NCBI GenBank assembly: GCA_043799545.1
Contig: JAZDNO010000018.1
Coordinates: 1 to 33,692 of the forward strand
Length of the DNA: 33,692 bases
Reading direction: 5' to 3'
DNA from: Methanobacteriota archaeon
GTDB lineage: Archaea > Thermoplasmatota > Thermoplasmata > SG8-5 > DAIRED01
The number at the start of each line of letters is the position of its first letter. Position 1 is the first letter of the stretch. Both the position numbers and the translations under genes were made by a program. Positions 1 through 14,669 of this stretch are shown in pieces. The notes beneath the pieces are model-generated. The model was given only the letters and a program-made list of their open reading frames with translations, did not search any database and was not told where the DNA came from.

Positions 1-543
1 GGTAGAAGCAATCTCACTCAAACGAAAGCACCATCTCCAAGTCAATATGTCAAAAATATCATCAAAGGATTTGAACTAGCTGAAAATTTAGGAATTATTA
101 TAAATCATCAAGATCTATCATTAGATTTGAAAAAATCCTATTGTGGTGCAAATGGGACTAATCTAATATTAACCTCAGATGGCTATATAAGTTCCTGTTC
201 AGAAATAACCGAATCTTCACATCCAGATTCATCGACATTTATCTATGGAAAAATAGAAGGTCAAAAATTAAAAATAAATGAAAACAAATTACACATACTA
301 AAAAAACGAACGGTGGATAATGTTATTGGATGTAACCATTGCTTCGCTAGATATATTTGTGCTGGAAAATGCTTCATTCGATCTTTAAATAATACACAAT
401 CAATTTTCATTGCTGACAAAAGTACTTGTACTATTCAACAGGAATTGTTAAAATATCTGTTGGCTCGTTTATTACGAGGAAATATAAATATGGAATCGTA
501 TGATTTTCTAACGAAAGTAGTAAAATTTAAGACAAACGCCTAA
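1..543 (+). CDS. Radical SAM/SPASM-domain protein, C-terminal part (5' truncated by window edge)
   Basis: Frame is open from base 1 (GRSNLTQTKAPSPSQYVKNIIKGFELAENLG...), so the track's TTG start at 127 is internal. SPASM motifs are CGANGTNLILTSDGYISSC and CNHCFARYICAGKC...C (CxxCx5Cx3C). It is colinear with the C-terminus of the 5063-6418 enzyme. Confidence 0.85.
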   Translation, partial: GRSNLTQTKAPSPSQYVKNIIKGFELAENLGIIINHQDLSLDLKKSYCGANGTNLILTSDGYISSCSEITESSHPDSSTFIYGKIEGQKLKINENKLHILKKRTVDNVIGCNHCFARYICAGKCFIRSLNNTQSIFIADKSTCTIQQELLKYLLARLLRGNINMESYDFLTKVVKFKTNA

Positions 544-1546
544 TAATATACTGGATTTGTTTCTTCTCATTTTTATCACAACTTTCACGTAACTTAACCT
601 TTAGCATGTCCACAATATCCTTAAGATTATCTAATGAAGGCAGTTTAACAACCAATTCTTCGTCATCAATAAGCCTATTGATATATTCCTCAATAATCTC
701 AACCTCTGGCTTTTTATTTGACAGACTAACTTCCTTCCTTAGAAATACGTGAGCAAAATTGTTAATGAATCCGCACTTACTACGACGCGATAAGTTTTCA
801 ATTGCTGAAAAAAGTCTATGTAATGCGAGTACTTGAAATTTTGGTTCTGTATTTTTCATCAATCCTTCCCATGTACCACCGTATGTAGGTTCAAAATCTG
901 CTATTTCGCCTTCAGATGTTATGTTATTAATCTCCATAGATCCATGATATAATTTAGCATCAAACATACACCTTACACTCCTCCCTAACACGTTCCCAAG
1001 ATATCGGCAATATTCAGCCTCATCTATTTGACGTAATTCCAAATATTGTTTTAATATAGTCTTATCAAAATGAAAATTAGAAAGTCTTAACGGAGAAATA
1101 AACGATCTGACAATTACAGCTAAAGGCATACCATTTAAGGATCCATAATTATAACATGCAATTGGTCGTTGGCAGAAAGCTCCAGATTTTATGGCGACCT
1201 TAGAAAAGTAATGCTCATCTAATGCGCGCTGTTTCTCAACACCACCCCACGCAAACTTTCCAAGAGATTTAATCTGACCACCATTATAACCTATACCCTT
1301 ATATTCAATTCCAGGATAATAAAAAGCATCACTTTTCCACAAATTAAATAGCCATACGGCTCTCTGCGAATGACTTTGATAAACCTGGATCTTACCAGGT
1401 TTTGATGATAATGCATCAAATTGAGGAATACCCTTGTCTTTTAGCAATGATGTATTATCGATTCTAGAAAAGAGGAATTTATTTTTATAAATTATTCTAC
1501 TTAGTTGCCATAACTTATAAACATATTTTTTACCAGTCGTCACCAT
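527..1546 (-). CDS. SelO/YdiU-like pseudokinase-fold protein (putative AMPylase/adenylating enzyme), 339 aa
   Basis: Ordered motifs match the SelO pattern as recalled: YKGIG (LKGAG), LDE (IRE), VIVRSFISPLRLSNF (MLMRVAPSHLRFGHF), HGSMEINNITSEGEIADFEP ([20 protein letters not shown]). GAGGT SD upstream of the ATG; 17-nt convergent overlap with the radical SAM gene. Confidence 0.65.
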   Translation of the reverse strand: MVTTGKKYVYKLWQLSRIIYKNKFLFSRIDNTSLLKDKGIPQFDALSSKPGKIQVYQSHSQRAVWLFNLWKSDAFYYPGIEYKGIGYNGGQIKSLGKFAWGGVEKQRALDEHYFSKVAIKSGAFCQRPIACYNYGSLNGMPLAVIVRSFISPLRLSNFHFDKTILKQYLELRQIDEAEYCRYLGNVLGRSVRCMFDAKLYHGSMEINNITSEGEIADFEPTYGGTWEGLMKNTEPKFQVLALHRLFSAIENLSRRSKCGFINNFAHVFLRKEVSLSNKKPEVEIIEEYINRLIDDEELVVKLPSLDNLKDIVDMLKVKLRESCDKNEKKQIQYIIRRLS

Positions 1547-1555
1547 TATTAACCT

Positions 1556-2497
1556 CTAATACTTATTATCTAACTCTTTTTGTTTCTTAAATTTCCTTAA
1601 TATTATAATTTCTGTCTCTACCTTAAATCCACAACTTGAATATAACCTTACAGCACTTGGAACCTCTAAATCTACATCCAGTTCTACTCGCTTTACTCCT
1701 TTTTGTTTAAACCAATTTAGACTATTTAAAAGTAATGCTTTACCCAAACCTTTATTCCTATCCATCTGTAAAACAGTTAACCAACTTATAATTCCCATCG
1801 ATGAAATTTCTGGATGTATAACATTGATGATAACGCCCACAATATTATTATTTCTTTTAGTTACGAATACACCGTTATAATCAAAAAACTTTTCAGTGTA
1901 GAGTCCTATAAAACCATTTATAATATTAGTAGTATCATCCACAACATCTTGAAACCCTAACTCTAATGTGTTAATAATCGATTCTTTATCATTTGGGAAG
2001 ATTGCACTTTCCAAACTATAATTTTTACTTATAAAAACATCCTTAGGTTCAAATGTATCTGTTGTAAAAATCATATGGTATCCAGATTTCCAATATGTAA
2101 AATTATTTTCATGTAACACATTATTTAGATTGTCGAATTTTGAAGGGATAGAAATTCTATACTCATTAATATCTCGATAACACTCATTCATAAGTATGGT
2201 GTCAAGTAATTTTTTCTCTATACCAATATATCTAAAATCTGGCTTCAATAAAATTGATAATTCTACAACATTCGCTTGATTAGTTTTAATCATATAGATA
2301 CTGCCAATAATTTTATTCCTCGAAATTGCTAATAAATGTGATTTTTCGTTAAAATCTGGATTTAAAAAATATTGTTTACAGATGTCAACGGTTAATTCGA
2401 CATGTCCGGGATAATCTGCATGGGCTTCATTTGCAAACTTGACATAGTCCTCAATATCTGATTCCCTTGAAAATGTCCTTATCATTACATCAATCAT
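1556..2497 (-). CDS. Tandem GNAT-family N-acetyltransferase (MshD-like two-domain architecture), 313 aa
   Basis: C-terminal acetyl-CoA motif A (LQMDRNKGLGKALL) and motif B (AVRLYSSCGF); degenerate N-terminal repeat (DFRYIGIEKKLL...NNFTYW). Stop lies 9 nt before the SelO-like start. Confidence 0.85.
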   Translation of the reverse strand: MIDVMIRTFSRESDIEDYVKFANEAHADYPGHVELTVDICKQYFLNPDFNEKSHLLAISRNKIIGSIYMIKTNQANVVELSILLKPDFRYIGIEKKLLDTILMNECYRDINEYRISIPSKFDNLNNVLHENNFTYWKSGYHMIFTTDTFEPKDVFISKNYSLESAIFPNDKESIINTLELGFQDVVDDTTNIINGFIGLYTEKFFDYNGVFVTKRNNNIVGVIINVIHPEISSMGIISWLTVLQMDRNKGLGKALLLNSLNWFKQKGVKRVELDVDLEVPSAVRLYSSCGFKVETEIIILRKFKKQKELDNKY

Positions 2498-2539
2498 TGA
2501 AATCCCTACCAGCTTACAGTATAATCGTTGATACGCTAT

Positions 2540-2668
2540 TTAATACTTGGCATATATGTTATTATCTAACATCCTAGTATTAGCCCTACCCGAAAAGTAG
2601 AATATCTGGTTTGGTATATCACATTGTCCGCATACATTCCTTGGCGGATTATCAAATGTTGAACCCAT
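2540..2668 (-). CDS. Small ORF, 42 aa, MGSTFDNPPRNVCGQCDIPNQIFYFSGRANTRMLDNNIYAKY; candidate RiPP precursor or leader peptide
   Basis: ATG at 2668, TAA at 2542-2540; fills most of the 214-nt gap between the divergent GNAT and ABC genes, same strand as and 42 nt upstream of GNAT; CxxC and FYF motifs. No SD visible; below the ORF-track cutoff; could be chance. Confidence 0.3.
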   Translation of the reverse strand: MGSTFDNPPRNVCGQCDIPNQIFYFSGRANTRMLDNNIYAKY

Positions 2669-2711
2669 ATGTTGGAGGCTATAATAAACAAAAGATCAAG
2701 TTAGGTGAAAA

Positions 2712-4481
2712 ATGTTCAATAATGGAGATAATTATAAAATAAATAAATCTACAGTACCGAATTCGCAGTCAAAGAGGATTTTAGGGTATGCAAGACCTCA
2801 TATTCGTCTCCTTTTCTTAATTTTTATTCTATCTATTCTTATGATAATATCTAGTTTGATTAACCCATACCTTTTAAAAATTTTAATAGATGATGTTTTT
2901 ATCGCGCGTGAATATTCCCTTCTGATGTATATTTTAGCAGCATTTATCTGTGTACTTATTTTAGGGACATGTTTGTATATTATATATAATTATTATATTA
3001 CGTTATTTGCAGAAAAAATTATTAAAGATATACGACAGGAATTATTTGATCATGTCGAGTCTTTAGGTTTGGACTTTTATTCTCATAATAAAACAGGTGA
3101 CATAATTTCGCGGATACTTGGCGATACGCAAGGTGTTCAAGAATATATTCTACTTACTTTTAATGGTATAATATTAAACATAATAACCCTTATAGCGATA
3201 TTTATTATTGCTTTTACTATTTCATGGCAACTTACATTAATATCTCTATTCATTATGCCTTTTTATTTTTGGTCAGATACCTATTTCGGTGCGAGAATGA
3301 AGAAACAGAAGAGGGATATTAACATAGAAATAGCAGGTTTTATTAGCTTCTTAGAAGAGCACACAAATTTTATAAAACTTATTAAGAGATTTAATATGGA
3401 AAAATATGAAAGTAACATGTTTAATACAAAGGCTGATGGTTTATTACGACAAAATGTAGGGATTGCATTAACACGGGGATATAATTCCAGTTTTATCGCA
3501 ATAGCTTCATTTTTACCACTCCTTCTAATAATGCTTATAGGGAGTTACGAAATTTTTATCGGAATACTTACCATAGGAGGATTCATAGCTGTGTACACAT
3601 ACATTAGTAAAATGTTTGATCCAATTGGAGGTTTGTATATTGCTCGAGTAAATCGACAGGCTTCATTAGCTTCTGTTCAACGAGTATTTGAATTTCTTGA
3701 TCAGAAACCAAAAATATGTGAAATAAAAGAACCGATTAGTGTAGAACAATTAAAGGGAGAAATAGAATTTAAAAATGTTAAATTTAGTTATGGAAAGAAA
3801 GTCGTGTTTGATAACATTTCTTTTAAAGTAAAGATGGGCGAGAAAATTTATATTTTAGGACCAAGCGGAATTGGAAAAACATCAATTGTTGATTTGATAT
3901 TTCGATTATACGATGTAGACGAAGGACAGATATTCATTGATGGGATTGATGTAAGGCATTATAAAATAGAAACCCTCCGTCAAAGACTAGGCGTTATTGG
4001 TCAAGAAATAATGTTATTTAACAATACTATTTCCTATAATATAAAATTTGGCAAAATTTCCGCTTCGGATGATGAAATAAAAAAAGCTGCTGATAGATCA
4101 TGTGCATCATATTTCATTAATGAACTGTCAAGTGGGTATGAAACAAATGTAGGACCAAATGGCGCAAATTTATCGGGCGGGCAGAAACAATTAATATCTA
4201 TTGCACGAACTGTACTAAAGAATCCCGACATTTACATATTTGACGAAATTGCCACAGGTCTAGATCCTGTTTCGCAGAAACATATATACGAGTCTATTGA
4301 TAAAGTAACACAAAACAAAACAACTATTTGGATAACACACAAGTCCATATCCGCCCATGGGAGTGCTAGAATCTTATTCATCCATGATGGAAAATTAGTT
4401 GAAGATGGATCATATAAAGAATTGATGGAACGTAAAGGTTTCTTTTATAATTTTTTTGTGAATGATAATATCAAAGAATGA
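2712..4481 (+). CDS. ABC exporter, fused TMD+NBD (MsbA/peptide-exporter type), no N-terminal C39 peptidase, 589 aa
   Basis: Hydrophobic N-terminal half; Walker A GPSGIGKTS, signature LSGGQKQ, Walker B IYIFDE, H-loop ITHK; AGGTGA SD before the ATG. Confidence 0.95.
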   Translation: MFNNGDNYKINKSTVPNSQSKRILGYARPHIRLLFLIFILSILMIISSLINPYLLKILIDDVFIAREYSLLMYILAAFICVLILGTCLYIIYNYYITLFAEKIIKDIRQELFDHVESLGLDFYSHNKTGDIISRILGDTQGVQEYILLTFNGIILNIITLIAIFIIAFTISWQLTLISLFIMPFYFWSDTYFGARMKKQKRDINIEIAGFISFLEEHTNFIKLIKRFNMEKYESNMFNTKADGLLRQNVGIALTRGYNSSFIAIASFLPLLLIMLIGSYEIFIGILTIGGFIAVYTYISKMFDPIGGLYIARVNRQASLASVQRVFEFLDQKPKICEIKEPISVEQLKGEIEFKNVKFSYGKKVVFDNISFKVKMGEKIYILGPSGIGKTSIVDLIFRLYDVDEGQIFIDGIDVRHYKIETLRQRLGVIGQEIMLFNNTISYNIKFGKISASDDEIKKAADRSCASYFINELSSGYETNVGPNGANLSGGQKQLISIARTVLKNPDIYIFDEIATGLDPVSQKHIYESIDKVTQNKTTIWITHKSISAHGSARILFIHDGKLVEDGSYKELMERKGFFYNFFVNDNIKE

Positions 4482-4501
4482 TATACCGCAGCTTCGCAAT
4501 A

Positions 4502-4509
4502 TTATTATA
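4502..4509 (+). promoter_or_regulatory. Putative archaeal TATA box for a leaderless YkgJ-radical SAM transcript
   Basis: TTATTATA located 25-32 nt upstream of the ATG at 4534, which has no SD. Weak because the context is AT-rich. Confidence 0.35.
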
Positions 4510-4533
4510 TAGCTCGTTACTTTCCCGTTCATA

Positions 4534-5073
4534 ATGAAGGACTATTCAGACTGCGTAGATATAATGTTACACAATGACTTTCTATGTTATTACAAATGTG
4601 GAAAATGCTGCTTTTTCGCTCAATTTGATAAACAATTGAAAGGACCGTTTTATCATAAGCAGGAAAATGTAAATACAATATTAAATTTAATATCGAAAAT
4701 GATAAAAAAACCAGTACAGGAATATGCATTTTACTCAAAAAAAGAAGAGCGGTGGTATCTTAGAGTAAAAGTAATGAAAATGCCGGAAGATACATGGGCG
4801 GCTCCATTTCTATCATTTAGTAATCCTCTTGGTATTGATATAAATAATCCTAGAGCATGTGTTTTCCTAAACTCCAGTAGCATGACATGTGATATTTATA
4901 AATATAGACCATTTATGTGTAAAAAGTACACCTGTAAATATGCGTTAGTTCTTGGAGTATTGATTAATAATAAAATGATATCTAAAAGTAAATTATTAAA
5001 AGAATTTACTGGCCGATCATTAAAAAACCAATATAAGTTGGTTATCGAGGAGGTTAATAGAATTGCCTCCTAA
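4534..5073 (+). CDS. YkgJ-family cysteine-cluster (Fe-S/Zn) protein, 179 aa
   Basis: CYYKCGKCC near the N-terminus and CVFL...CDIYKYRPFMCKKYTC, the CxxCGxCC / CxFL..CxIYxxRPxxC signature. Confidence 0.85.
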   Translation: MKDYSDCVDIMLHNDFLCYYKCGKCCFFAQFDKQLKGPFYHKQENVNTILNLISKMIKKPVQEYAFYSKKEERWYLRVKVMKMPEDTWAAPFLSFSNPLGIDINNPRACVFLNSSSMTCDIYKYRPFMCKKYTCKYALVLGVLINNKMISKSKLLKEFTGRSLKNQYKLVIEEVNRIAS

Positions 5074-6418
5074 AATATTTAAAACTGTTAAGATTTTTTA
5101 TTCGAAGTATAGTAATATTAAAGGGAGAGCTAGACATTTTATCATTCCCATTGATAATAACAGATATATAATTTATGTACCGAGAAAAGGTATTTGTTCA
5201 TTAGTAAACAAATCATTTATAGATTCAATGAATTCAAATGATAAAAGTGTACGTAAGTTATTTACTTATATTGACAGTCAATATCCAGTACCTCGCTTAT
5301 ATAATTGTGGAAAAATTGCACAAACAAAGATGAGAGCATTAATTCTCTATTTAACAAATCAGTGCAATATGCGATGTACCTATTGTTATGTGACTGGACA
5401 GGAAAAACCAATCATTATGGATTTCCAAACAGCAAAAAACGCGGTTGATATTTCAATAAAAGGATCAGTAAAAGAGCTCTCTCTAACTTTTCATGGCGGG
5501 GAACCATCGCTCGTTTTTAATCTAATGAAACAAATATTTAATTATGCGAAAATGACATGCAATACTAAAAAAATAAAATTAAGTGCGATTTGCATATCAA
5601 ATGGAACATATGATGAAAAATTTGTGAAATGGATAAAAATAAATGATATTAAAATTTATGTCACTATTGATGGCCCATCATTCATACATAATCGGCAAAG
5701 ACCTTTCAAGGATGGGACTGCATCTTTAACCAAAGTTATTCGTGGTATTAATCTATTAAAAAAAAATAAAGTAAAAATCTCTTGTGGAACTACTATCACA
5801 AAATATAGTGCCCCATACATGGTGGATATTATTAAATACATTCATAAGTTAGGAATTATGGAATATAATATCGGTCCATTGATACCACTAGGGAGAGGAC
5901 AATGTGATAATATCCCGAATGGATTTACATATATCAAGGGATATAAGAGATGTCTCAAATATGCAAATAATAACGATTTTTTTATCCAAACAATAGGGCA
6001 ATCTTTTGACCTTTTATGCACAAAATGTAGCGCATCAACGCAATCAATCATGGTAATATTACCGGGTGGCGAAGTAACTGCTTGTCATATGATAGTCTCC
6101 CCGTATTCAAAGTTATCAGATAAATTTATTATTGGGAATATTCATGATAATAAACTAATTATTCATCAAAATAAGGTGAAAGCGCTTAAAAGGTCTATAC
6201 ACAACATAACTGGTTGTAAAGAATGCTATGCTAAATGGACATGCGGTGGAAATTGCATGTTATATCCGTTGGTAGAAAATAAATCCTTGAACGAACCAGC
6301 AGGAGAGAACATATGTAATATAGAAAAAGAATTATTAAAATTCAGTTTGTTGTCTCTTATTAATAATGATAGAAGTTTCTGGCAAAAAGATTATGTAATT
6401 AAGGAAATAAAAATTTAA
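5063..6418 (+). CDS. Radical SAM/SPASM peptide-maturase-like protein, 451 aa
   Basis: CxxxCxxC (CNMRCTYC), FHGGEP motif, SPASM cysteines (CSAS...GGEVTAC; CKECYAKWTCGGNC...C); ~90-aa N-terminal extension; TTG start with GAGGAGG SD, overlapping the YkgJ stop by 11 nt. Confidence 0.93.
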   Translation: MPPKIFKTVKIFYSKYSNIKGRARHFIIPIDNNRYIIYVPRKGICSLVNKSFIDSMNSNDKSVRKLFTYIDSQYPVPRLYNCGKIAQTKMRALILYLTNQCNMRCTYCYVTGQEKPIIMDFQTAKNAVDISIKGSVKELSLTFHGGEPSLVFNLMKQIFNYAKMTCNTKKIKLSAICISNGTYDEKFVKWIKINDIKIYVTIDGPSFIHNRQRPFKDGTASLTKVIRGINLLKKNKVKISCGTTITKYSAPYMVDIIKYIHKLGIMEYNIGPLIPLGRGQCDNIPNGFTYIKGYKRCLKYANNNDFFIQTIGQSFDLLCTKCSASTQSIMVILPGGEVTACHMIVSPYSKLSDKFIIGNIHDNKLIIHQNKVKALKRSIHNITGCKECYAKWTCGGNCMLYPLVENKSLNEPAGENICNIEKELLKFSLLSLINNDRSFWQKDYVIKEIKI

Positions 6419-6642
6419 TCCATTTTGAGATTGATAGAAAAGGACACAACGGTGCTCGCATCGTAGGAAATATTTCTTATGATTATTATATCATTGTTGA
6501 TAGTGTGACCTTTACCTGGCATGCTTACTAAAGTGCCTACAATCGTACGCAACACCTCGCGTCCTGCCGAAGAGAGACAATATACCTTTTTCATCCTGCA
6601 CATCCCGTTCTCGCGTCCTAGGAAGTAAGCCCACTATCCCCA

Positions 6643-7881
6643 CTACGTAACCATCTTCCCGCGCTTCCAAACATCCCGCACGACGTTCCCCCCCCACCTG
6701 TATGGTATGGCGTCCACCGTCGGCGCGTCCAGCACCAAAAAATCCGCCTGCTTTCCAGGCTCCAGGCTGCCGACCTTCGAGTCCATGCCGATTGCATGCG
6801 CTGCGTTTACGGTGGACGCGCACAGCGCCTCCGCCGGCGTCATCCGCATCCTGTAGCAGGCGAGCGACTGGACCATCTGCATCGATTCGAGCCAGCAGTT
6901 CGGGTTCAGGTCGGTGGCGAGCGCGACCGCCATCCCCGAATCAATCATTCCCCGCGCGTCTGCGTACCGGTCCTGCATCAGAACGTACGGAGTACCAGGC
7001 AGCATGACGCCGATAGTGCCGCGCTTGGCGATGTATCCAAAATCCTTCGCCGGCGTCACGAGCATGTGGTCCGCCGAAACCGCCCCCATCTCCGCTGCCA
7101 GGCGCCCCCCCCTCAGCGGAAACACCTCGTCCGCGTGGAGCTTGAGGCCGAGCTTCAGCTTCCGGGCGGCCATGAGTATCTCGCGGGACTGCGGCACGTC
7201 GAACACCCCTTTCTCGCAGAAGACATCGCAGTATCGGGCCAGCTTGCGCTTCGCTATCGCGGGTAGCATCTCGTCGACGATGTGCTCCGCGTAATCGTCG
7301 AACTTCTTGAAATCCGGAGAGAGCGCGTGCGCCCCGAGGAACGTGTGTGCGATGTCCAGCCCGGTTTTCTTGCGCACTTCCTCCGCCGCTTCCAGCATCT
7401 TTATCTCGCCCTTGGTGTCAAGGCAGTACCCGGTCTTGGCCTCCAGGGTGGTCGTTCCGAGGGAGAGCATCCTCCGCGCCCGGGCCAGGCCCTCTTCCAC
7501 TAGCTGCGATTTCGATGCCTTCCGTGTCGCACGGACCGTGCTGTAAATCCCTCCGCCGCGCTTCATTATCTCCATGTACGAGAGCCCTTGGAGCTTCATG
7601 GCCAGCTCGTTCTCGCGCGAGCCCGCGAAAATCATGTGGGTGTGCGCGTCCACGAAGCCCGGTACGACGGCCATGCCCTTCGCGTCTAACACGTCTTCCG
7701 CTTTGAATCTCGAACTGGCCGATGACTTCCCAACCCAGAGAACCTTGCCATCTGCGACCGCCATTGCACCATTTCGGATTATTTCGGCGCCCGACATCGC
7801 ACGGCCTTTCCTCAACCCGCCCGCAAGGGTGGCCAGCTGCCCGACGTTCTTCACAAGCAGATCGCATTCGGTGGTTGTCAT
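6643..7881 (-). CDS. hutI: Imidazolonepropionase, 412 aa (start reassigned to MTTTEC at 7881)
   Basis: DAHTH, KTGY, FLGAH, DVFCE, KLHADE, SADH, LPGT and ATDLNP motifs of HutI. The track's extension to 7977 overlaps the upstream gene. Confidence 0.92.
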   Translation of the reverse strand: MTTTECDLLVKNVGQLATLAGGLRKGRAMSGAEIIRNGAMAVADGKVLWVGKSSASSRFKAEDVLDAKGMAVVPGFVDAHTHMIFAGSRENELAMKLQGLSYMEIMKRGGGIYSTVRATRKASKSQLVEEGLARARRMLSLGTTTLEAKTGYCLDTKGEIKMLEAAEEVRKKTGLDIAHTFLGAHALSPDFKKFDDYAEHIVDEMLPAIAKRKLARYCDVFCEKGVFDVPQSREILMAARKLKLGLKLHADEVFPLRGGRLAAEMGAVSADHMLVTPAKDFGYIAKRGTIGVMLPGTPYVLMQDRYADARGMIDSGMAVALATDLNPNCWLESMQMVQSLACYRMRMTPAEALCASTVNAAHAIGMDSKVGSLEPGKQADFLVLDAPTVDAIPYRWGGNVVRDVWKRGKMVT

Positions 7882-7889
7882 TCTTACCC

Positions 7890-8273
7890 TCACGCCTTCT
7901 CGACCGTGCCGGCCTGCGCGTCCACCTTCAACCTGTCTCCGGTCTTGATTGAGGATATGTCTATCCCATCGACGCACGGGATTCCAGCCAGGATTACGCC
8001 GGTCGCGACGATTGTTTCAGTCTCCTTGTTGATTATGGCCGCTGGACCGGCCTTGTTCGTGGCCAGACCGTAAATCACGTACGAACCGACCGTCGAGCCT
8101 TTGCCGTTTGGGAATACCAGAATCTTGCCTTTGACGCTCTTGCCCTCAAGCTCGTGGCCCTTCTCGATTACGATTCCGGTTTTAGCGTCGATACCGCCGT
8201 AGAACCCCAGAGGTTCCCTGGAGACTATGGCCTCCGCCTCGACCTTCCCCGGAAAGATGCAGCGGCCCTTCAT
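7890..8273 (-). CDS. Phosphomevalonate dehydratase small subunit (AcnX swivel domain, DUF126), 127 aa
   Basis: FPNGKGSTVGS motif with the conserved Ser; ATGA overlap with the large subunit; located in an mvk/UbiD operon. Confidence 0.9.
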   Translation of the reverse strand: MKGRCIFPGKVEAEAIVSREPLGFYGGIDAKTGIVIEKGHELEGKSVKGKILVFPNGKGSTVGSYVIYGLATNKAGPAAIINKETETIVATGVILAGIPCVDGIDISSIKTGDRLKVDAQAGTVEKA

Positions 8274-9457
8274 TCCGTCACCTCCTTCACGAGGTCGTCG
8301 ATGTTGCGGTACACAACGCTCTGCTTGCAGAAGCCAGGTAGGTAGTTACCAGCCTTTCCCGAGTTGACGCCGGTTGTCTTGTAGCCCATGTCCTCTATCG
8401 GCGAGACGACCATGCATGTGTCCGCGACGACCTTGCCTCCGGCCTTCTCGATTTCCGCCACAATCCCCATCTGAACGGCCGTGTCCTTCGTGGCCCGCGC
8501 GGTGCAAATCCAGAGCGCCTTCTTGACCTTCCTCCCCCTGAGCTTCGCGGCCAGCGCAATCATCTCCCTAAGCGACGCGTGCGGGCAGCCGAGGATGGCT
8601 ATGTCCGCCTTCGCTCCGGTGTTCAGCTTGGCATAAGCCTCGTCCATCTCCTTCTTGCCGAAGTGGATTGCCTCTAGGCCGTCAGTCTTGTGGAGGTGCG
8701 CCTCAGGCGTCTGATTCTCGACGTGATATACACCAACGGCTCCAGATGCGGCCATCGCAGCGCCCAGCGCCTTGAGCATGTCCGTGTCCGACTCTGGCAG
8801 GCCGACGAAGTACGGCACCTTGTTCTTCACGATTTTACCAACGTGGTAGCCGAGCGCTCCGTAGTCGGACATGCCGTCCATCGCCGCCTCGACCTTGACT
8901 ATGTAGTTCGGCTTGCGGTTCTCGTCCAGGTGCAGGCCGTAGTTCGGCGTGACTCCGCATAGCGCCGCCGCCAGCGCGCTCGGTCCGCCCTCCCGGTTCG
9001 ACCTGGCGCCTATGACCGAGTTCGCGAACGAGACGGCCGACGATTCGGACCAGGCGATGTGCTCTCTGAACCTCGGAAGGTTCCCTGCCAAATATGGGGT
9101 GCAGGTGGCGCTCGTCACTATGCCCATCTGCGCGAAGGCCGCCATGATGCGCTTTTGCTTCACTGCGAAATCCTTCGGAAATCCGAGAGCCTGCCAGTCC
9201 TCCATGTCCATCCCGGCGGGGTTGAGATATGTCAGGGCCTTGACGCGGGCGCCCTTCTTCGCGTAGTCCTCGAGGAAATCGAGCCCCGGGTCTCCGATTG
9301 ACTTGTACGAAACACCTGCGACCTGGACGGAATTCACGGGGAGCATCCTGTCAGCGCCGTAGATGTCTCCGAGCCTCGCCAGCAGCATCATCGAGCGTTG
9401 CAGGACCTCCCCGCGCTCGCCTGCGAGCGTCGCCTCCTGCTTCTTTGTCAGATGCAT
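8270..9457 (-). CDS. Phosphomevalonate dehydratase large subunit (AcnX, DUF521), 395 aa (start MHLTKKQE at 9457)
   Basis: Three Fe-S cysteines (TCTPY, GCPH, DTCMV), WSESSAV..ANSV.GARSNREGGP motif; paired with the DUF126 gene. Confidence 0.92.
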   Translation of the reverse strand: MHLTKKQEATLAGERGEVLQRSMMLLARLGDIYGADRMLPVNSVQVAGVSYKSIGDPGLDFLEDYAKKGARVKALTYLNPAGMDMEDWQALGFPKDFAVKQKRIMAAFAQMGIVTSATCTPYLAGNLPRFREHIAWSESSAVSFANSVIGARSNREGGPSALAAALCGVTPNYGLHLDENRKPNYIVKVEAAMDGMSDYGALGYHVGKIVKNKVPYFVGLPESDTDMLKALGAAMAASGAVGVYHVENQTPEAHLHKTDGLEAIHFGKKEMDEAYAKLNTGAKADIAILGCPHASLREMIALAAKLRGRKVKKALWICTARATKDTAVQMGIVAEIEKAGGKVVADTCMVVSPIEDMGYKTTGVNSGKAGNYLPGFCKQSVVYRNIDDLVKEVTE

Positions 9458-9765
9458 TTCGCCAACTCCCTGCAATTCGCGACCAGGATGTCGATTTCCT
9501 CCTTGGTCGCATCGTCCACGTGGACGCCTCCCAATGCCGCTACGGTCATATTGTATTTTCGGGAGACTGCCTCCGCAATCGGGCGCAGCACCTGCTCGTC
9601 GTAATGCCCCTCCAGAGAGAGAGCGACCGCCTCCTTGCCAGGCTCCTTCACCACGACGCCTCCGACGTGCGAGCGCTCACCGCCTCCCAGGATGCAGACC
9701 ATTCCGTCATCCAGCCGCTCGACCTTGAGCCATACCCTGTACCTTCCCTCACCGGACGTAATCAT
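9448..9765 (-). CDS. LpdD-like small protein (putative prenylated-FMN chaperone, PAC-like fold), 105 aa
   Basis: His-containing motifs GGGERSHVGGV, GHYDE, GGVHVDDATKEEI resemble the LpdD family as recalled; overlaps both the UbiD stop and the PMDh-L start. Confidence 0.65.
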   Translation of the reverse strand: MITSGEGRYRVWLKVERLDDGMVCILGGGERSHVGGVVVKEPGKEAVALSLEGHYDEQVLRPIAEAVSRKYNMTVAALGGVHVDDATKEEIDILVANCRELAKCI

Positions 9766-11056
9766 CCAGCTTCACATCCCCGTATCGCACCTTCTCGTAC
9801 TTCTTCGGACCTATGTCGGCGGGTATCGTGGCGTCGAGGCCGACCTTCGTGGTCAGCGCCTTCTTTCCAGAGTGGTCCCCCGACGGGTCCAGCGACGAGC
9901 CGGGCTGGCGGGCCATCACGACCGCGTCCTTGTCGGCCTGGAAGCGCGTTGCCAGCGCCCACTCGATTGCAATCGGGTTGAAGATGTCAACGTCTTCGTC
10001 CACGACGACGACGTGCTTCATGCTGTTGTGTCCTTTGAAGGCCGCGTCTATGGCCTTGCGCCCGTCGTCCGGGTTCCTCTTCTTTATCTGGACTATCCCG
10101 TGAAGCCAGGAGCCTCCGCCCATAGTCACCTGGACGTTCCTGCACTCGCAGACCTTGCTGACCTCGTCGAATATCGTCGGCTCCTTCGGCATCCCCATGA
10201 GCAGCTTGTGCTCCAGGCGGCCGGGGAGGAGGCACTGGTACATGGCGTCCTTGCGGTGCGTGATGCAATCGACTACGAAGACGGGCTCCTTTCTCTCGAA
10301 GTCGCGCGTCTCCGTCAAATCCACGAACGGTCCCTCGGCGTCGACCTCCTTGACTAATCTCCCTTCCAAGACAAACTCTGAATCCGCCGGCACCTCCAGG
10401 TCCTTCGTCGCGCACTTCACGACGTCTGTCCTGGCCAGCGCGTTCGCGATGGAAAGCTCGTCCGCTCCCGGCGCAGGCCCGAGCGAGGCCGCAACCATCA
10501 TCGGCATCGAGTTCCCTATGCATACCGCCATCTCGAGGTCGCCCTTCAGCTTGTCGTATGTAGTGCGGGTCTGGCGCTTGGGGATGAGCCTCGCCGTGAA
10601 GCGGTTCCCTCCGCGGAACATGAGCCTGTGGTACGAGACGTTTCGGCCGGTCTCAGGGTCCTTGATGACTGCGCACGTTGCCGTCGCGTAGCGCCCGCCG
10701 TCCCCCGGCAGGTGCGTCAGCATCGGCAGCTTCGCCAGGTCCGGGCTCCTCTCCACGACCTCCTGGCACGGAGCCCTGTCGACCAGCGCTGGCGGGACCG
10801 GCTTGCGGAGCGATTCCACGAGCTTAGACAGCAGCCCCTCCTTCGTCGTGCCCAGCCCTTTCGCGATGAGCTCTCTCGTGGACGTGATGCCCCCGAAGAC
10901 CGGAAACTGGCTTCCGCGGACATTCTCGAACATCGTGGGCTTTTCCCCGAGCGCGTTCAGGACGTTGGCAATCTCGAACTCGGTGCTCACCTCCCTCTTG
11001 ACTCGCACAAGCTCTCCGTCCGCTTCCAGCATCTTCAGAAAATCCCGCAGTTTCAT
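9749..11056 (-). CDS. UbiD-family prFMN decarboxylase, probably trans-anhydromevalonate 5-phosphate decarboxylase, 435 aa (start MKLRDFL at 11056)
   Basis: UbiD motifs (EGPF, SYHRL, PGRLEH, WALATRFQ, SSLDPS, KVGLDAT); flanked by mvk and PMDh genes. Confidence 0.9.
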   Translation of the reverse strand: MKLRDFLKMLEADGELVRVKREVSTEFEIANVLNALGEKPTMFENVRGSQFPVFGGITSTRELIAKGLGTTKEGLLSKLVESLRKPVPPALVDRAPCQEVVERSPDLAKLPMLTHLPGDGGRYATATCAVIKDPETGRNVSYHRLMFRGGNRFTARLIPKRQTRTTYDKLKGDLEMAVCIGNSMPMMVAASLGPAPGADELSIANALARTDVVKCATKDLEVPADSEFVLEGRLVKEVDAEGPFVDLTETRDFERKEPVFVVDCITHRKDAMYQCLLPGRLEHKLLMGMPKEPTIFDEVSKVCECRNVQVTMGGGSWLHGIVQIKKRNPDDGRKAIDAAFKGHNSMKHVVVVDEDVDIFNPIAIEWALATRFQADKDAVVMARQPGSSLDPSGDHSGKKALTTKVGLDATIPADIGPKKYEKVRYGDVKLDDYVR

Positions 11057-11060
11057 TTCA

Positions 11061-12041
11061 TCACACACCTATCGTGGTCTTCAAAGCCTTGTACCCAGCC
11101 TTCTCCATGGCGGCGGCGACCCCGTCCTGGACTCCCTTGCCCGGCGTCAGCGCGACCATGTAGCCTCCGAGCCCGCCTCCCGTCATCTTGGCACCGGCCG
11201 CGCCGTTCGCCCTGGCGATTCCCACGAGCTCGTCCAGCTTCGGGTGCGAAACCTCTATCTGCTGCAGGAGCGCGTGGTTCTCGTCCATAAGGCGGCCCAG
11301 TTCTGCCACGTCGTAGGCTTCGAGCGCCGCCCTTGCCTTCAGCGCGATGGCCCTGGCCCGGTTGAAGATGGCCTCGTACTTCTCCGGCTGCTCCCCTTTT
11401 CGTTTTCTCACGCCCGCGACTGCCGCCTCCGTGTTCGTCGTCAGGAGCGTGTTGCCCATGACGATGCGGAGAGGCTCTTTGATTCTGAGACGCTCCATCG
11501 TGCTTGCCGCTCCGGGGTTCTTCACGAACCACAGGAGGCCGCCGAAGGTGGAGGCCGTGTTGTCTATGCCCGACGGCGTGCCAGCGTAGGCGCTGTCGCC
11601 CAGGAACGCTATGTCGTTGATGCGCTTGTCGTCGAAGCCGAGGCCGAATTCGCCGCTGAGCGCCCGCGCCACGGAAACGCAGACTGCCGCGCTCGCGCCC
11701 ACGCCGCCTACGGCGATGAGGTCTCCTCCGAGGTGTATCTTCACCGGGTTCTTCCTCGGGTCGAATCCAGCGCCCTGGAAAACAAGCTCGATAGACCTCT
11801 TCTGCTGCGGGTGCTTCTCCGTCTTGTACCCTGGGTTCGCCTGGCGGTCGTCCTCCATCACCCAGCCGTCGCCGGACATGGAGCCTTCGGCGCCCGACGG
11901 CTCCGGCATCTTGCCTGCGGGAACCCTGTGAACGGTCGCCACGGTCTTGGAGTCTATGGCCGAGGCGATGGACGGCACCCCGTGGACTACGAAATGCTCG
12001 CCGAAGAGAATCACCTTGCCGTACCCGATTCCTTTGCCCAT
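11061..12041 (-). CDS. mvk: Mevalonate kinase (GHMP kinase), 326 aa
   Basis: GKVILFGEHFVVHG (motif I), GGVGASAA (motif II variant), GTPSGIDN, AKMTGGGLGG (motif III). Confidence 0.95.
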   Translation of the reverse strand: MGKGIGYGKVILFGEHFVVHGVPSIASAIDSKTVATVHRVPAGKMPEPSGAEGSMSGDGWVMEDDRQANPGYKTEKHPQQKRSIELVFQGAGFDPRKNPVKIHLGGDLIAVGGVGASAAVCVSVARALSGEFGLGFDDKRINDIAFLGDSAYAGTPSGIDNTASTFGGLLWFVKNPGAASTMERLRIKEPLRIVMGNTLLTTNTEAAVAGVRKRKGEQPEKYEAIFNRARAIALKARAALEAYDVAELGRLMDENHALLQQIEVSHPKLDELVGIARANGAAGAKMTGGGLGGYMVALTPGKGVQDGVAAAMEKAGYKALKTTIGV

Positions 12042-12051
12042 TGCAGACCCG

Positions 12052-12092
12052 CTCCTGTTCGAGGAGATAATCTGACGGCCCCAATAAATTTT
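12052..12092 (-). promoter_or_regulatory. Promoter region of the mvk operon, with AAAATTTATT box and CTCCT-N5-AGGAG inverted repeat
   Basis: Minus strand reads AAAATTTATT (12092-12083) about 45 nt upstream of the mvk ATG; perfect 5-bp inverted repeat at 12052-12066 whose downstream arm is the AGGAG SD. Confidence 0.45.
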
Positions 12093-12111
12093 GCTATGGA
12101 ACGGAATCAGT

Positions 12112-13842
12112 TCAACGCTGCCCCGACAGGCTCTCCGCCAGGCGGCGCCGCTCGTCCACGGTCAGCACGACACCGCAACCAGGGCATCTGGTAACCTCGG
12201 ACTCTATCGCCTCACCGCACGTCGAGCATGTGAACAGCGAGTCGAACTCGGCCTTGTCCTCCCCGTACCACTCGCCCTCGTACTCCTTGTCCAGGCGGGC
12301 GGACTTCAGGTAGCAGTCCCTCGCCTCGTCGCCCTTACCCTGGTCGTAGAGCAGGTGGCCGAGGTCGTACCACGCCTCCGCGTTTTCCTCGGATATCTCT
12401 ATAGCCCGCCGCAGGTTGTCCAGCGCCGCACCAATGTTGCCCTCGGCCGACGAATTCTTGGCCTTCGCGACCCATTTCCTGCTTCGCTCGAACAGCATGC
12501 GCTTGGCGTACTCGATGGAGTGCATGTAATCGTAGAGCCTGGCCGCCGCGTCCGCGCCGACTATCCCTTTCAAAGCCGCGGTGTCGACCTTCTCCAGCTT
12601 CTCCACCGTGTGGTATCCAGCGTCGAACAGCGCCCGCGCGAGCCGCTCGTCCACTCCAGGCAGCGACCGCAATTCCTCGATTGCAGCACCCTCGTCGATT
12701 GCCTCCGTCGCGATGGTTATCCCCCGCTTCGTTTGCACCAGCTGGAAAACCCCTTTGTTGAAGCGCGCCCCCCTCAACGATGCGACCTCCAGCGTGCTTC
12801 CCACTGTTTCGGTCGATGCGCCCTTCCGGATCGTCAGAACGGCGTCGGCCAGGTTGTGCAGCGAGGATATGGTCTTCGTGTCCAGCCCTTTGGGGTCGAA
12901 CGCCCAGACGACGATTGCGCCGCCCGTCTTCATCTTCCCCGAGACGCTCTGGATGAAATCATGGGTCTTGGCCGCGCCGTGCGAGTTTATGGCCGGAGAA
13001 ACGACGTCGGAGATTATCCTCGTGCGCGGGGCGAATTCTATCTGGCCGAGGGCGCGCTCCATAGCCAGCGCGAGGTTCGTCAGGTCTCCGGAGGCGAGGA
13101 AAGCTCCGCTCTTGTCGGTTTCGACCCCGTTCACAGCCCTCTCGCGGTACGAGAACCAGTCGACGAAACGCAGCATGCCCTTGGATTCGTGGCTCCCGGC
13201 CTTCATCCCGGATTCGGCCAGCGCCTTCCTCAGGTCCGAAGGGGTCCTCGTGCCGAGCACGGCGACCACTGCACCGCCGCATTCCAGCTCGTTCCGAATC
13301 ATGGACCGAAGAATCATCTCGCGCTCCGCTCCAGAAGGTGATTCCAGCAGCAGCATCGAGTTCCTGGGCACGCCGTCAGGCAGGGCCAGCTCCTCGCCGT
13401 TCACCCCCAGCGGAGCGGTGTCGCCCAGGTATCCCCTTAATAGAGATGCCTTCACTGGGTCGCAATATTTCGAGTTGGAGAACTGCTTCAGGACCGCGCG
13501 AGAAATCCTGCCCGCGTCCTCGTATGCCGTCTTCTGGCCCTTGGAAAACGCAGTCACGTCGACTATGGCGTCGAACGCAGCCGACATGTCCTTAATCATT
13601 TCATCAGGCAGCATCGTCGAGGAGTCTATGGTCACGGACCCCTCCTTTCCCAGCGTCAGCGCGGACACGCCCGGCCTGGTCTTGGACAGCAGGCGCAGCT
13701 TGTTGGAGAACATCGCGACCGGCTGCGCCTTCAGGGCTTCACCCAGATAAGCGGAGAAGAGCCTCTCGAACAGCAATGCCAGTTCCGTTTCCCTCCGCTC
13801 GCCCGTTTCGCTACCCCCTTCAATCCCAGAAAACACCACCAC
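12112..13842 (-). CDS. Multidomain protein: N-terminal helical region, degenerate RAD55/KaiC-like ATPase, helix-hairpin-helix, TPR, C-terminal double zinc ribbon, 576 aa
   Basis: KaiC/RAD55-like core (GVPRNSMLLLESPSGAERE, RFVDWFS, IISDVVS, LADAVLTIR) lacking the Walker A GKT; HhH (LPGVDERLARALFDAGY); TPR (AWYDLGHLLYDQGKGDEARDCYLKS); CxxC..CxxC (CSTC, CPGC). Exact start uncertain (GTG). Confidence 0.75.
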   Translation of the reverse strand: MVVFSGIEGGSETGERRETELALLFERLFSAYLGEALKAQPVAMFSNKLRLLSKTRPGVSALTLGKEGSVTIDSSTMLPDEMIKDMSAAFDAIVDVTAFSKGQKTAYEDAGRISRAVLKQFSNSKYCDPVKASLLRGYLGDTAPLGVNGEELALPDGVPRNSMLLLESPSGAEREMILRSMIRNELECGGAVVAVLGTRTPSDLRKALAESGMKAGSHESKGMLRFVDWFSYRERAVNGVETDKSGAFLASGDLTNLALAMERALGQIEFAPRTRIISDVVSPAINSHGAAKTHDFIQSVSGKMKTGGAIVVWAFDPKGLDTKTISSLHNLADAVLTIRKGASTETVGSTLEVASLRGARFNKGVFQLVQTKRGITIATEAIDEGAAIEELRSLPGVDERLARALFDAGYHTVEKLEKVDTAALKGIVGADAAARLYDYMHSIEYAKRMLFERSRKWVAKAKNSSAEGNIGAALDNLRRAIEISEENAEAWYDLGHLLYDQGKGDEARDCYLKSARLDKEYEGEWYGEDKAEFDSLFTCSTCGEAIESEVTRCPGCGVVLTVDERRRLAESLSGQR

Positions 13843-13888
13843 GCTATATTAAACTAATGCATCGAAGGCAGTCCGAAAGGATTTTAGA

Positions 13889-14566
13889 ATGGGTGCATGT
13901 TGTCGAGGCATGCGCGTCCCGACGACATGCGTTCCGTTCGACGTTTTGCTCAAGGGCGGCCTTGAGCGAGGAGCGATAACGCTCATCTACGGCGAGGCGG
14001 GGACGGGGAAGACCAACATATGCCTCCAGATTGCGCTGGCCGTCGCCCGGTCGGGGAGGAAAGCGGTCGTCATAGACACCGAGGGGATTTCGATGGACCG
14101 CATGGGCCAGATTGCGGGGGCGGACCACGACGAGCTGGTCAAGCGCCTGCTGCTGTTCGAGCCGTATGACTTCGCGGAGCAGGAGGAGATGGTGGACAAC
14201 GCGGCCAGGCTGGCCCTGAACAATCCTGACGTGGCGCTCATCGTGCTTGACTCAATCACGATGCACTACCGAATAGAAATACAGAAGGACGCTGACCGCC
14301 CCTCGCTGGTAAAGCAGATTACCAGCCTGCTGAAGGTCGCGCGGAAGTCCCACATCCCAGTCCTGCTGACGAGCCAGGTGTACACGGACATCAGCAACGA
14401 CGAGTTCAAGCCGCTCGGCGGGCACGCGCTGCTGCATAACGCCAAGACTGTAATTCGCCTGGAAAAGGTGAGCACTGGCCTACGGAGGGCGGTGGTGATG
14501 AAGCACCGGTCGCTGCCGGAGGGGACGTGCGCGGAGTTTAGATTAACGGACAAAGGTGCTGAATAA
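13889..14566 (+). CDS. radB: DNA repair and recombination protein RadB, ~225 aa (start may be the ATG at 13910)
   Basis: Walker A GEAGTGKT, Walker B LIVLDS, C-terminal KHRS basic patch characteristic of RadB; lacks the RadA N-terminal domain. Confidence 0.93.
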   Translation: MGACCRGMRVPTTCVPFDVLLKGGLERGAITLIYGEAGTGKTNICLQIALAVARSGRKAVVIDTEGISMDRMGQIAGADHDELVKRLLLFEPYDFAEQEEMVDNAARLALNNPDVALIVLDSITMHYRIEIQKDADRPSLVKQITSLLKVARKSHIPVLLTSQVYTDISNDEFKPLGGHALLHNAKTVIRLEKVSTGLRRAVVMKHRSLPEGTCAEFRLTDKGAE

Positions 14567-14578
14567 AGAATGATTTCA

Positions 14579-14634
14579 GCGCTTGCAGATTTCTGGTATG
14601 GCGATTGCTCTTCCAATCCCAGAAACTGCTGCGC
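14579..14634. terminator. Long imperfect hairpin between convergent radB and GGPP synthase genes (possible bidirectional terminator or processing site)
   Basis: GCGC-TT-GCAG-A-TTTCTGG (14579-14596) pairs with CCAGAAA-CTGC-T-GCGC (14619-14634); inner GATTG/CAATC stem with a 6-nt loop; 20 bp in total. Confidence 0.4.
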
Positions 14635-14669
14635 GGAATTCCACCTGACCGATATAGGAGCAGAATAGA

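Follow-up and report, generated by a model that had tools for sequence, protein, structure and literature searches.

A small SelO-like kinase-fold family and its putative peptide-modification and export cluster at the end of a Thermoplasmata contig

Results

A candidate peptide-modification and export cluster beside hutI

Positions 1–6418 of contig JAZDNO010000018.1 (assembly GCA_043799545.1), from an archaeon assigned to the Thermoplasmata, appear to be the right-hand part of a cluster for the modification and export of a peptide resembling the RiPPs (peptides made ribosomally and then altered by post-translational modification). The cluster lies beside the host gene hutI and is of a kind otherwise found only in DPANN archaea; from the combined analysis, we put the probability of this reading at roughly 0.55. 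The whole stretch analyzed, hereafter the window, is 33,692 nucleotides long and is an entire contig (C13) of a metagenome-assembled genome (MAG) of 2.06 Mb, which comprises 31 contigs, has a GC content of 59%, and is 94% complete. The cluster encodes a small enzyme with a SelO-like protein kinase fold, two radical S-adenosylmethionine (rSAM) enzymes with SPASM domains (rSAM1 and rSAM2), a tandem GNAT acyltransferase, an ATP-binding cassette (ABC) exporter, a YkgJ-type protein, and a short open reading frame (ORF). At the level of the SelO-like family, the RiPP-like reading is supported by the predicted genes that surround its members, as described below.

An earlier reading of this DNA, made from the sequence only, had listed these genes as a compact AT-rich cluster with tight overlaps or short gaps. 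Every gene was located in the order and on the strand proposed (Table 1). The genes for rSAM1 and the SelO-like enzyme overlap convergently by 17 bp (527–543), the SelO-like gene is separated by 9 bp (1547–1555) from the GNAT gene upstream of it in the same operon, and the YkgJ and rSAM2 genes overlap by 11 bp (5063–5073). The GC content of positions 1–6420 is 29–32% (about 31%), compared with approximately 60% in the remainder of the window.

Table 1. Features of the left part of the window and of the adjoining host DNA. NBD, nucleotide-binding domain; RRE, RiPP recognition element; TMD, transmembrane domain.
Feature	Position	Strand	Remarks
rSAM1, C-terminal SPASM half	1..543	+	5' part lost at the contig end; TIGR04085 (SPASM), E = 4e-10
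Mini SelO-like protein-kinase-fold enzyme, 339 aa	527..1546	-	AlphaFold2 (AF2) fold and motifs; the family's signature gene
Tandem GNAT acyltransferase, 313 aa	1556..2497	-	PF13302 at residues 4-92, PF00583 at 206-291
Short ORF, 42 aa, ATG start, CxxC	2540..2668	-	Heads the GNAT/SelO-like operon; weak precursor candidate
ABC exporter, TMD-NBD half-transporter	2712..4481	+	PF00664 at residues 34-304, PF00005 at 367-513
YkgJ-type CxxCxxCC metal-binding protein	4534..5073	+	PF03692, E = 8e-7, above cut-off
rSAM2, 451 aa from TTG	5063..6418	+	Probable RRE-like N-terminal domain, radical SAM core, SPASM
Boundary zone, 31% GC block to 60% GC host DNA	6419..6650	.	GC profile
hutI, host gene	6643..7977	-	Right of the block
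AcnX, host gene	8270..9475	-	Right of hutI

Fold, motifs, and extent of the SelO-like family

The SelO-like protein had no Pfam match at E ≤ 0.01 and no NCBIfam match, and a profile of its family returned only noise against PDB sequences. An AF2 model built from an alignment of 20 homologues reached a predicted local distance difference test score (pLDDT) of 92 and a predicted template modeling score (pTM) of 0.88. When this model was searched with Foldseek, YdiU/SelO structures filled ranks 1 to 9 (E = 4e-8 to 6e-7), and the VIA aligner placed SelO (6EAC) at Z 16.8 with a root-mean-square deviation of 4.0 over 252 residues, followed by other folds at Z ≤ 12.5 (nonribosomal peptide synthetase-independent siderophore synthetases, Bud32, WaaP, and Rio kinases). 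SelO/YdiU (PF02696), a pseudokinase family that transfers AMP or UMP, was thus the best structural match with two aligners.

The two families also share the order and spacing of the motifs K-G-x-G, R-x6-R-(F/L)-x-x-F, H-G-x-M-x-x-x-N, and D-(Y/F)-x-P. Invariant in the SelO-like family are K83 (in YKGIG), E111-H112, R147, H201-G202, N207-N208, and D217-F218, and R154 is kept in at least 90% of the members. The aligned residues of Escherichia coli SelO are K107, R170, R177, D246 (replaced by Asn), N247, and D256: K83 in YKGIG corresponds to K107 in LKGAG, R147 and R154 in VRxFxSPLRLSxF correspond to R170 and R177, and the family segment HGSMEINNITSEGEIADFEP corresponds to a loop segment of 20 letters in the E. 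coli enzyme. Whereas SelO/YdiU has an Asp before its metal-binding Asn (HGxxNxDN), the archaeal family has an Asn, N207, at this position in 21 of 21 sequences. The archaeal enzyme also lacks the C-terminal domain of approximately 110 residues found in SelO/YdiU, the alignment spanning residues 10–365 of SelO, and, unlike SelO/YdiU, its family is surrounded by peptide genes, rSAM genes, and ABC transporters.

Compared with SelO/YdiU, the family is tiny. An exhaustive profile search of 1.84 billion representative proteins found 33 at E ≤ 1e-3, and a separate homologue search of 5.8 billion proteins found about 20 homologues. Because the protein fails the PF02696 model, has so few relatives, and has ten distant relatives in which PF02696 is likewise absent, it is, as far as the predicted structure allows it to be placed, a member of a separate, very small kinase-fold family with SelO as its nearest known relative. 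The original designation as SelO-like therefore holds for the fold and the motifs but not for family membership.

Gene neighborhoods of the relatives

We examined the context of the SelO-like gene in 12 loci besides the window (L003, L004, L005, L009, L010, L011, L014–L018, and L040), of which L010 and L011 carry near-identical sequence; for two more distant members (P0026 and P0035), the available context was too short to be informative. In a phylogenetic tree, the family fell into two clades (support 100/99 for each). The window protein belongs to clade 1, which is associated with MsbA-type transporters and/or rSAM enzymes, and is sister to the L005 protein (54% identity, support 100/98). 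An ABC transporter adjoins the SelO-like gene in 11 of the 12 loci, and it is of the MsbA type in L003, L004, L009, and L040 and of the ABC-2 type in L010, L011, and L014–L018. Genes for rSAM/SPASM enzymes were found in three loci (L003, L004, and L005) and a tandem GNAT gene in one (L005).

In clade 1, the Undinarchaeales locus L003 carries an rSAM/SPASM gene together with a gene for a 62-residue peptide; the SelO-like gene and an ABC exporter gene diverge from these two. In L004, the SelO-like gene lies amid three rSAM genes, two small peptide genes, and an ABC exporter; the peptides beside the rSAM genes in L003 and L004 are of the leader type. L005 has a tandem GNAT gene, the SelO-like gene, and a convergent rSAM gene that is preceded by a gene for a 344-residue protein. 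L040 encodes a 79-residue peptide ending in Cys, and its SelO-like gene is translationally coupled to the ABC exporter, which the SelO-like gene simply adjoins in L009. The co-occurrence proposed from the sequence was thus observed in other genomes, with rSAM/SPASM and MsbA-type ABC genes in L003 and L004 and with tandem GNAT and rSAM genes in L005.

Clade 2 has no rSAM genes. Its loci show a divergent ABC-2 transporter (ATPase and permease), then small peptide genes, and then the SelO-like gene. In L011 (six intact copies), L015 (two), and L018 (three), the SelO-like gene is immediately preceded by tandem peptide genes; these encode Cys-bearing peptides of 49–58 residues with invariant C9, L12, K16, E41, A43, L47, and C54. 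L017 has two copies of another peptide, which is Cys-free and helical, and L016 has one peptide with two Cys residues. Where multicopy, variable peptide genes separate a single enzyme gene from a transporter, the arrangement is the classic hallmark of a ribosomal peptide product. Conserved short ORFs beside the SelO-like gene, another expectation of the sequence-only reading, were present in relatives, and clear candidate peptides, some in several copies, were seen in L003, L004, L011, L015, L018, and L040. A complex prediction for the L011 enzyme and its adjacent peptide, both supplied as alignments, scored 0.02, which gave no verdict and was counted neither way.

The same neighborhoods bear on a different function, namely a transporter-regulation or stress module in which the target nucleotidylated by the SelO-like enzyme is the ABC transporter or some other protein of the cell and the small ORFs are incidental; a role of this sort has been proposed for SelO/YdiU on the grounds of its frequent ABC-transporter neighbors. 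ABC adjacency is the most universal trait of the family, occurring in the 11 of 12 loci with two unrelated transporter types, canonical SelO has also been reported in ABC-transport gene neighborhoods (PMC3281104), and canonical SelO/YdiU enzymes act on proteins. However, in three independent loci the transporter and the SelO-like gene are separated by two to six conserved genes in tandem for Cys-bearing peptides, the clade of the window enzyme has dedicated maturases of the CteB/PapB rSAM/SPASM type, and the Asp that precedes the metal-binding Asn in canonical SelO is missing. We consider a regulatory role of this kind improbable.

Several other features of these loci were observed. In L015 (positions 3210–5265; Ainarchaeum), two tandem SelO-like paralogues follow the two peptide genes, next to a ribosomal-protein operon. 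In L005, which holds the closest relative of the window cluster, defense-type genes surround the cluster (positions 1–5231 and 10231–15177), their products being an SNF2 helicase, a PD-(D/E)XK nuclease, a PglZ protein, and an HFX_2341_N protein; judging by these surroundings, the cluster may travel inside variable defense or competition islands. PADLOC assigned no defense-system membership to the window cluster and reported solely generic ABC and viperin-type rSAM similarity. Two independent loci have a Fic-domain gene in the vicinity of the SelO-like gene (L004:18157–19209 and L017:5704–6615). The Fic domain represents another class of AMP transferase, and this proximity may be a coincidence or a functional link.

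Comparison with microcin and lanthipeptide enzymes

A protein-language-model search led to clusters annotated with "MchC protein." MchC/MceJ was described by Dudkiewicz et al. in 2012 as a distant SelO subfamily that, in a complex with the HlyC-type acyltransferase MchD/MceI, links a siderophore moiety to a microcin, and its gene cluster also encodes an ABC exporter (PMC3281104). According to PMC7472721, it is still unknown what exactly MceI/MceJ and the homologous MchC/MchD do. The systems for the siderophore-microcins H47, M, and E492 place a divergent SelO-family enzyme needed for peptide modification beside an acyltransferase, a precursor gene, and an ABC exporter (PMC3281104; PMC7472721). 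In E. coli Nissle, MchC was missed by a PF02696 search and was located through its HlyC-type neighbor; the gene order there is mchI, mchB, mchC, mchD, an HlyD-family secretion gene, and mchF.

Common to MchC and the archaeal family are the Lys motif KGIG and a loop of the form (S/N)-N-I-x3-G-x3-D-F, which reads SNIAMDGRLMDF in MchC and NNITSEGEIADF in the archaeal family. Both are without the Asp that precedes the Asn in SelO, MchC having Ser and the archaeal family Asn at this position. In the window and in L005, an acyltransferase gene (GNAT) lies directly upstream of the SelO-like gene, and the likeness to MchC is at the level of motifs only. MchC is longer (516 residues compared with 339), and the acyltransferase is of the HlyC type (PF02794) in mch but a tandem GNAT (PF00583/PF13302) here; HlyC-type acyltransferases reportedly have a GNAT-like fold. 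The mch and mce systems contain an IroB-like glycosyltransferase, an IroD-like esterase, and siderophore genes, which the archaeal cluster lacks; Pfam and NCBIfam scans of positions 1–6418 found no glycosyltransferase, esterase, or HlyD gene. Their precursors have a Ser/Gly-rich C terminus, and no such precursor was found in the archaeal loci. The mch exporter has a C39 peptidase and an HlyD-type partner, whereas the archaeal exporter has neither a peptidase nor a membrane-fusion partner. Finally, the archaeal cluster, unlike the MchC/MceJ systems, contains rSAM/SPASM enzymes, and those systems are enterobacterial whereas the window cluster is archaeal.

Kinase-like folds have also been recruited to RiPP maturation in the kinase domains of class III/IV lanthipeptide synthetases and in the aminovinylcysteine (AviCys) cyclases, the latter being kinase-fold enzymes of lanthipeptide pathways (PMC12291118). 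These enzymes phosphorylate Ser/Thr or cyclize and are not SelO-like, and the same domain scans found no lyase, cyclase, or LanC-type domain in the window cluster. Among relatives of the SelO-like enzyme, MchC/MceJ is the only one known to mature a peptide, and its microcin system is the closest analogue of the archaeal cluster. Because MchC/MceJ works with an acyltransferase and an ABC exporter in microcin maturation, the statement of the sequence-only reading that the gene combination matches no known RiPP class was too strong, having overlooked MchC/MceJ with MchD/MceI. Nonetheless, we found no literature linking SelO-like enzymes to rSAM/SPASM clusters of this kind, and the archaeal combination of a mini SelO-like enzyme with rSAM/SPASM enzymes appears to be undescribed.

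The rSAM enzymes and the other proteins of the cluster

The rSAM2 protein matches PF04055 and PF13186 and has an invariant CxxxCxxC motif (C101, C105, and C108) and seven invariant SPASM Cys residues (C322, C341, C385, C388, C394, C398, and C418). Its top NCBIfam models were PapB, nif11, and HxsB, with models of anaerobic sulfatase-maturating enzymes (anSMEs) lower and every score below its cut-off. The predicted structure (pLDDT 64, with a good core) retrieved CteB first in Foldseek, over the full length (E = 4e-21), and anSME at approximately 2e-16 without the N-terminal domain. CteB, an RRE-bearing SCIFF maturase, and PapB, a ranthipeptide maturase, both form thioethers and share with rSAM2 the CxxxCxxC motif, the seven-Cys SPASM domain, and an N-terminal extension; rSAM2 nevertheless scores far under the equivalog cut-offs, its best score being 146 bits for PapB compared with a cut-off of 340. 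Residues 1–100 had no Pfam match, though approximately 90 N-terminal residues are conserved, and residues 26–83 adopt a β3-α3 topology as in a PqqD-like RRE at a low pLDDT of 33–61; the RRE of rSAM2 is accordingly putative. The NCBIfam and Foldseek comparisons support the placement of rSAM2 nearest to RiPP maturases.

Close homologues of rSAM2 number only about four, all in SelO-like clusters, and the full-length identity to the rSAM enzymes of L004 and L005 is 35–36%. The public gene call for rSAM2 has 362 residues (P0021). Because the homologues align along the full 451-residue form, from residue 3 onward, the TTG start at 5063 is favored; the recorded gene is probably truncated at its N terminus, with window positions 5063–5330 belonging to it. 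The remaining part of rSAM1 shares 62% identity over 174 residues with the L005 rSAM enzyme, whose gene converges on the SelO-like gene there, and 29% identity with rSAM2.

An intracellular role would also be conceivable for such enzymes, in maturing either a protein or a cofactor derived from a peptide (in analogy to pyrroloquinoline quinone, mycofactocin, QhpD/quinohemoprotein, or anSME) and with no exported peptide. The rSAM/SPASM enzymes serve such roles too, anSME was the second structural match, QhpD and HxsB models score against rSAM1 and rSAM2, and no precursor peptide was found in the window. Yet the exporter is conserved with the system, the cluster has no dehydrogenase, sulfatase, or other cofactor-using partner, and multicopy, variable peptides typify secreted products, not cofactors. 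We regard this role as less probable still than the regulatory one. Taken at the family level, the observations that the sequence-only reading had named as speaking against a RiPP-like pathway, namely genes that do not co-occur elsewhere, no conserved short ORF nearby, and rSAM enzymes clustering with anSMEs or cofactor-biosynthesis enzymes, are not what was found, because the genes co-occur, the relatives have peptide genes, and PapB, nif11, HxsB, and CteB outrank anSME in the comparisons with rSAM2.

The ABC exporter resembles MsbA/HlyB, below all family cut-offs, and is 52% and 40% identical to the ABC proteins of L004 and L003, respectively, both from SelO-like clusters. It has no C39 peptidase domain because the protein begins directly in the membrane domain (residue 34). 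The tandem GNAT protein, the domains of which were also delimited at residues 4–92 and 206–293, has an MshD-like architecture with scores far under the equivalog cut-offs, and in L005 the gene immediately upstream of the SelO-like gene encodes an orthologue of 45% identity. The host genome contains a paralogue of this GNAT (G000:C1:103828–104730), also a tandem GNAT, with 34% identity over 302 residues.

Observations that weigh against the peptide reading

Several observations count against a peptide product of the window cluster. No convincing precursor peptide was found in the window. The gap at positions 2498–2711 is the sole sizeable intergenic gap, and the 42-residue ORF is its only open frame; an ORF of such length is expected in 8–11% of random 214-nucleotide sequences of the same composition. 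This ORF did not match the profiles of the two peptide families from the relatives, neither the window nor L005 yielded a member of these families with the same profiles, and L005 has neither a counterpart of the ORF nor an obvious precursor. The short ORF that the sequence-only reading had included in the cluster is thus within chance expectation and a weak precursor candidate; the precursor could be this ORF or may lie past the contig end. The cluster is indeed truncated at the left, where a part is missing. The sequence left of base 1, which the earlier reading had suggested recovering, is outside the assembly because the window is a whole contig. A search of all 31 host contigs found no match to the N terminus of rSAM1 or to the 344-residue L005 neighbor, and an exact-sequence look-up of the SelO-like protein and rSAM2 found no match on other contigs.

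Other points of this kind concern the individual proteins. The YkgJ-type gene was found in the window only and in no related locus; it is therefore an accessory specific to the window cluster and does not belong to the conserved gene set. The MshD-like family, which the GNAT resembles, acts on small molecules. The link to SelO and MchC rests on the fold and the motifs because the sequence-level similarity is not significant: hhalign gave E = 0.042 for the family against the single E. coli SelO and E = 0.29 against the single MchC, with the aligned segments falling on the motifs in both cases, and a PF02696 profile search of the whole host genome found no match. Moreover, N208 and D217 are presumably the metal-binding Asn and Asp, the flipped-ATP and metal-ligand roles being taken from the SelO literature.

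Origin of the AT-rich block

The homologues of the SelO-like protein that carry a name all belong to DPANN MAGs (Undinarchaeales, Ainarchaeum, or an unclassified "archaeon"); 40 Thermoplasmata relatives of the host yielded none. Because the relatives are DPANN archaea and the cluster occupies an AT-rich block (31% GC) where the contig ends, its sequence indicates that it is not native to the Thermoplasmata genome, the foreign origin being argued from the homologue distribution. The cluster is of DPANN type whether the block was acquired or misassembled.

Misassembly would mean that DNA of a co-occurring DPANN archaeon was joined to a Thermoplasmata contig, with the function of the cluster unchanged. 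Such a chimera would account for a block at a contig end with a single visible junction, a GC difference of 28 points with no amelioration, and the exclusively DPANN homologues (0 of 40 Thermoplasmata relatives); the block is, in addition, the largest and the lowest in GC of the MAG, and no tRNA, repeat, or integrase was found at the block or its boundary. On the other hand, the gap of 225 bp that holds the junction is intergenic and is bordered by convergent genes, both of them complete: the alignment of rSAM2 with its homologues extends to its final residues, and the C terminus of HutI is intact. The GC content changes gradually, from 0.29 to 0.60 over approximately 200 bp, and DNA homology to a genome of the same genus (G001) starts at the stop codon of hutI (6651). 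Relatives also differ from one another at the site downstream of hutI, and the host genome holds 19 internal blocks of 32–39% GC flanked by host DNA. Two such blocks (31–33% GC) have acquired cargo, a DNA methylase with a DndB-like protein and an OLD-family nuclease; six contig ends break within low-GC blocks, four of them of at least 1.2 kb, and the estimated contamination of the MAG is 0.85%. On balance, we find a chimera doubtful and regard the block as probably a horizontally acquired island.

The variable site was seen in a relative of the same order (G002:C67; L028:6195–8096), where a different insert of approximately 2 kb and 31–33% GC lies downstream of hutI and encodes a 633-residue NosD/right-handed β-helix protein before a DNA ligase. 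Because this differing AT-rich insert occupies the same site, the site looks like an insertion hotspot. The two internal blocks of the host genome with acquired cargo were also inspected. One (G000:C22:131456–134070; L036:1057–3671) is an island of 31–33% GC that encodes an N6/N4 DNA methylase and a 591-residue, faintly DndB-like protein, and it is, from these genes, probably an acquired restriction-modification or DNA-modification module. The other (G000:C27:22690–25344; L037:1091–3745) is a gene of 32% GC inside a 60% GC contig; its 885-residue product combines an OLD-family ATPase and a TOPRIM nuclease with an inserted PF00432 α-α toroid (E = 8e-43). A prenyltransferase/terpene-cyclase (PF00432) insertion is an unusual combination for a defense-type nuclease.

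Discussion

A possible route from precursor to exported peptide

Within the peptide-modification reading, a small Cys-bearing precursor would be cross-linked by the two rSAM/SPASM enzymes, possibly through thioether-type chemistry as with CteB and PapB, and the YkgJ metalloprotein could serve as an accessory. The mini SelO-like enzyme would bind ATP in the SelO orientation and transfer AMP to the peptide. Because Asn replaces the Asp next to the metal-binding Asn, the acceptor is likelier to be a carboxylate or another base-independent group, as might be the case for MceJ/MchC, than a Ser/Thr/Tyr hydroxyl. The co-transcribed tandem GNAT may then use the activated peptide as an acyl donor, in the manner proposed for MceI/MchD, or may itself acylate the peptide, and the ABC half-transporter would export the product. 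In clade 2, the enzyme would act alone and perhaps form an intramolecular link, since Lys16 and Glu41 of the peptides are invariant.

More speculatively, the family could define a new, DPANN-restricted class of ribosomal peptide. In such a class, a kinase-fold nucleoside monophosphate transferase would adenylate a peptide carboxylate (the C terminus or the invariant Glu), followed by ligation or cyclization (for example, onto the invariant Lys) or by GNAT acylation, with optional rSAM cross-links, and the window copy would have passed from a DPANN symbiont to its Thermoplasmata host. We offer this extended proposal tentatively and consider it appreciably less likely than the peptide-modification reading itself.

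Implications for DPANN archaea and the SelO family

Few archaeal RiPPs have been characterized, and we know of none from DPANN archaea. Because DPANN archaea have tiny genomes and depend on hosts, a conserved exported-peptide system in these organisms would likely matter for interactions between symbiont and host or with competitors. If the island is real, it would represent the gene flow of a secondary-metabolite cluster from DPANN archaea to the Thermoplasmata. A second, independent lineage of peptide-linked SelO-like enzymes would generalize the chemistry of MchC/MceJ, and the two- and three-gene systems consisting of peptides, enzyme, and ABC transporter would be simple settings in which to resolve that chemistry.

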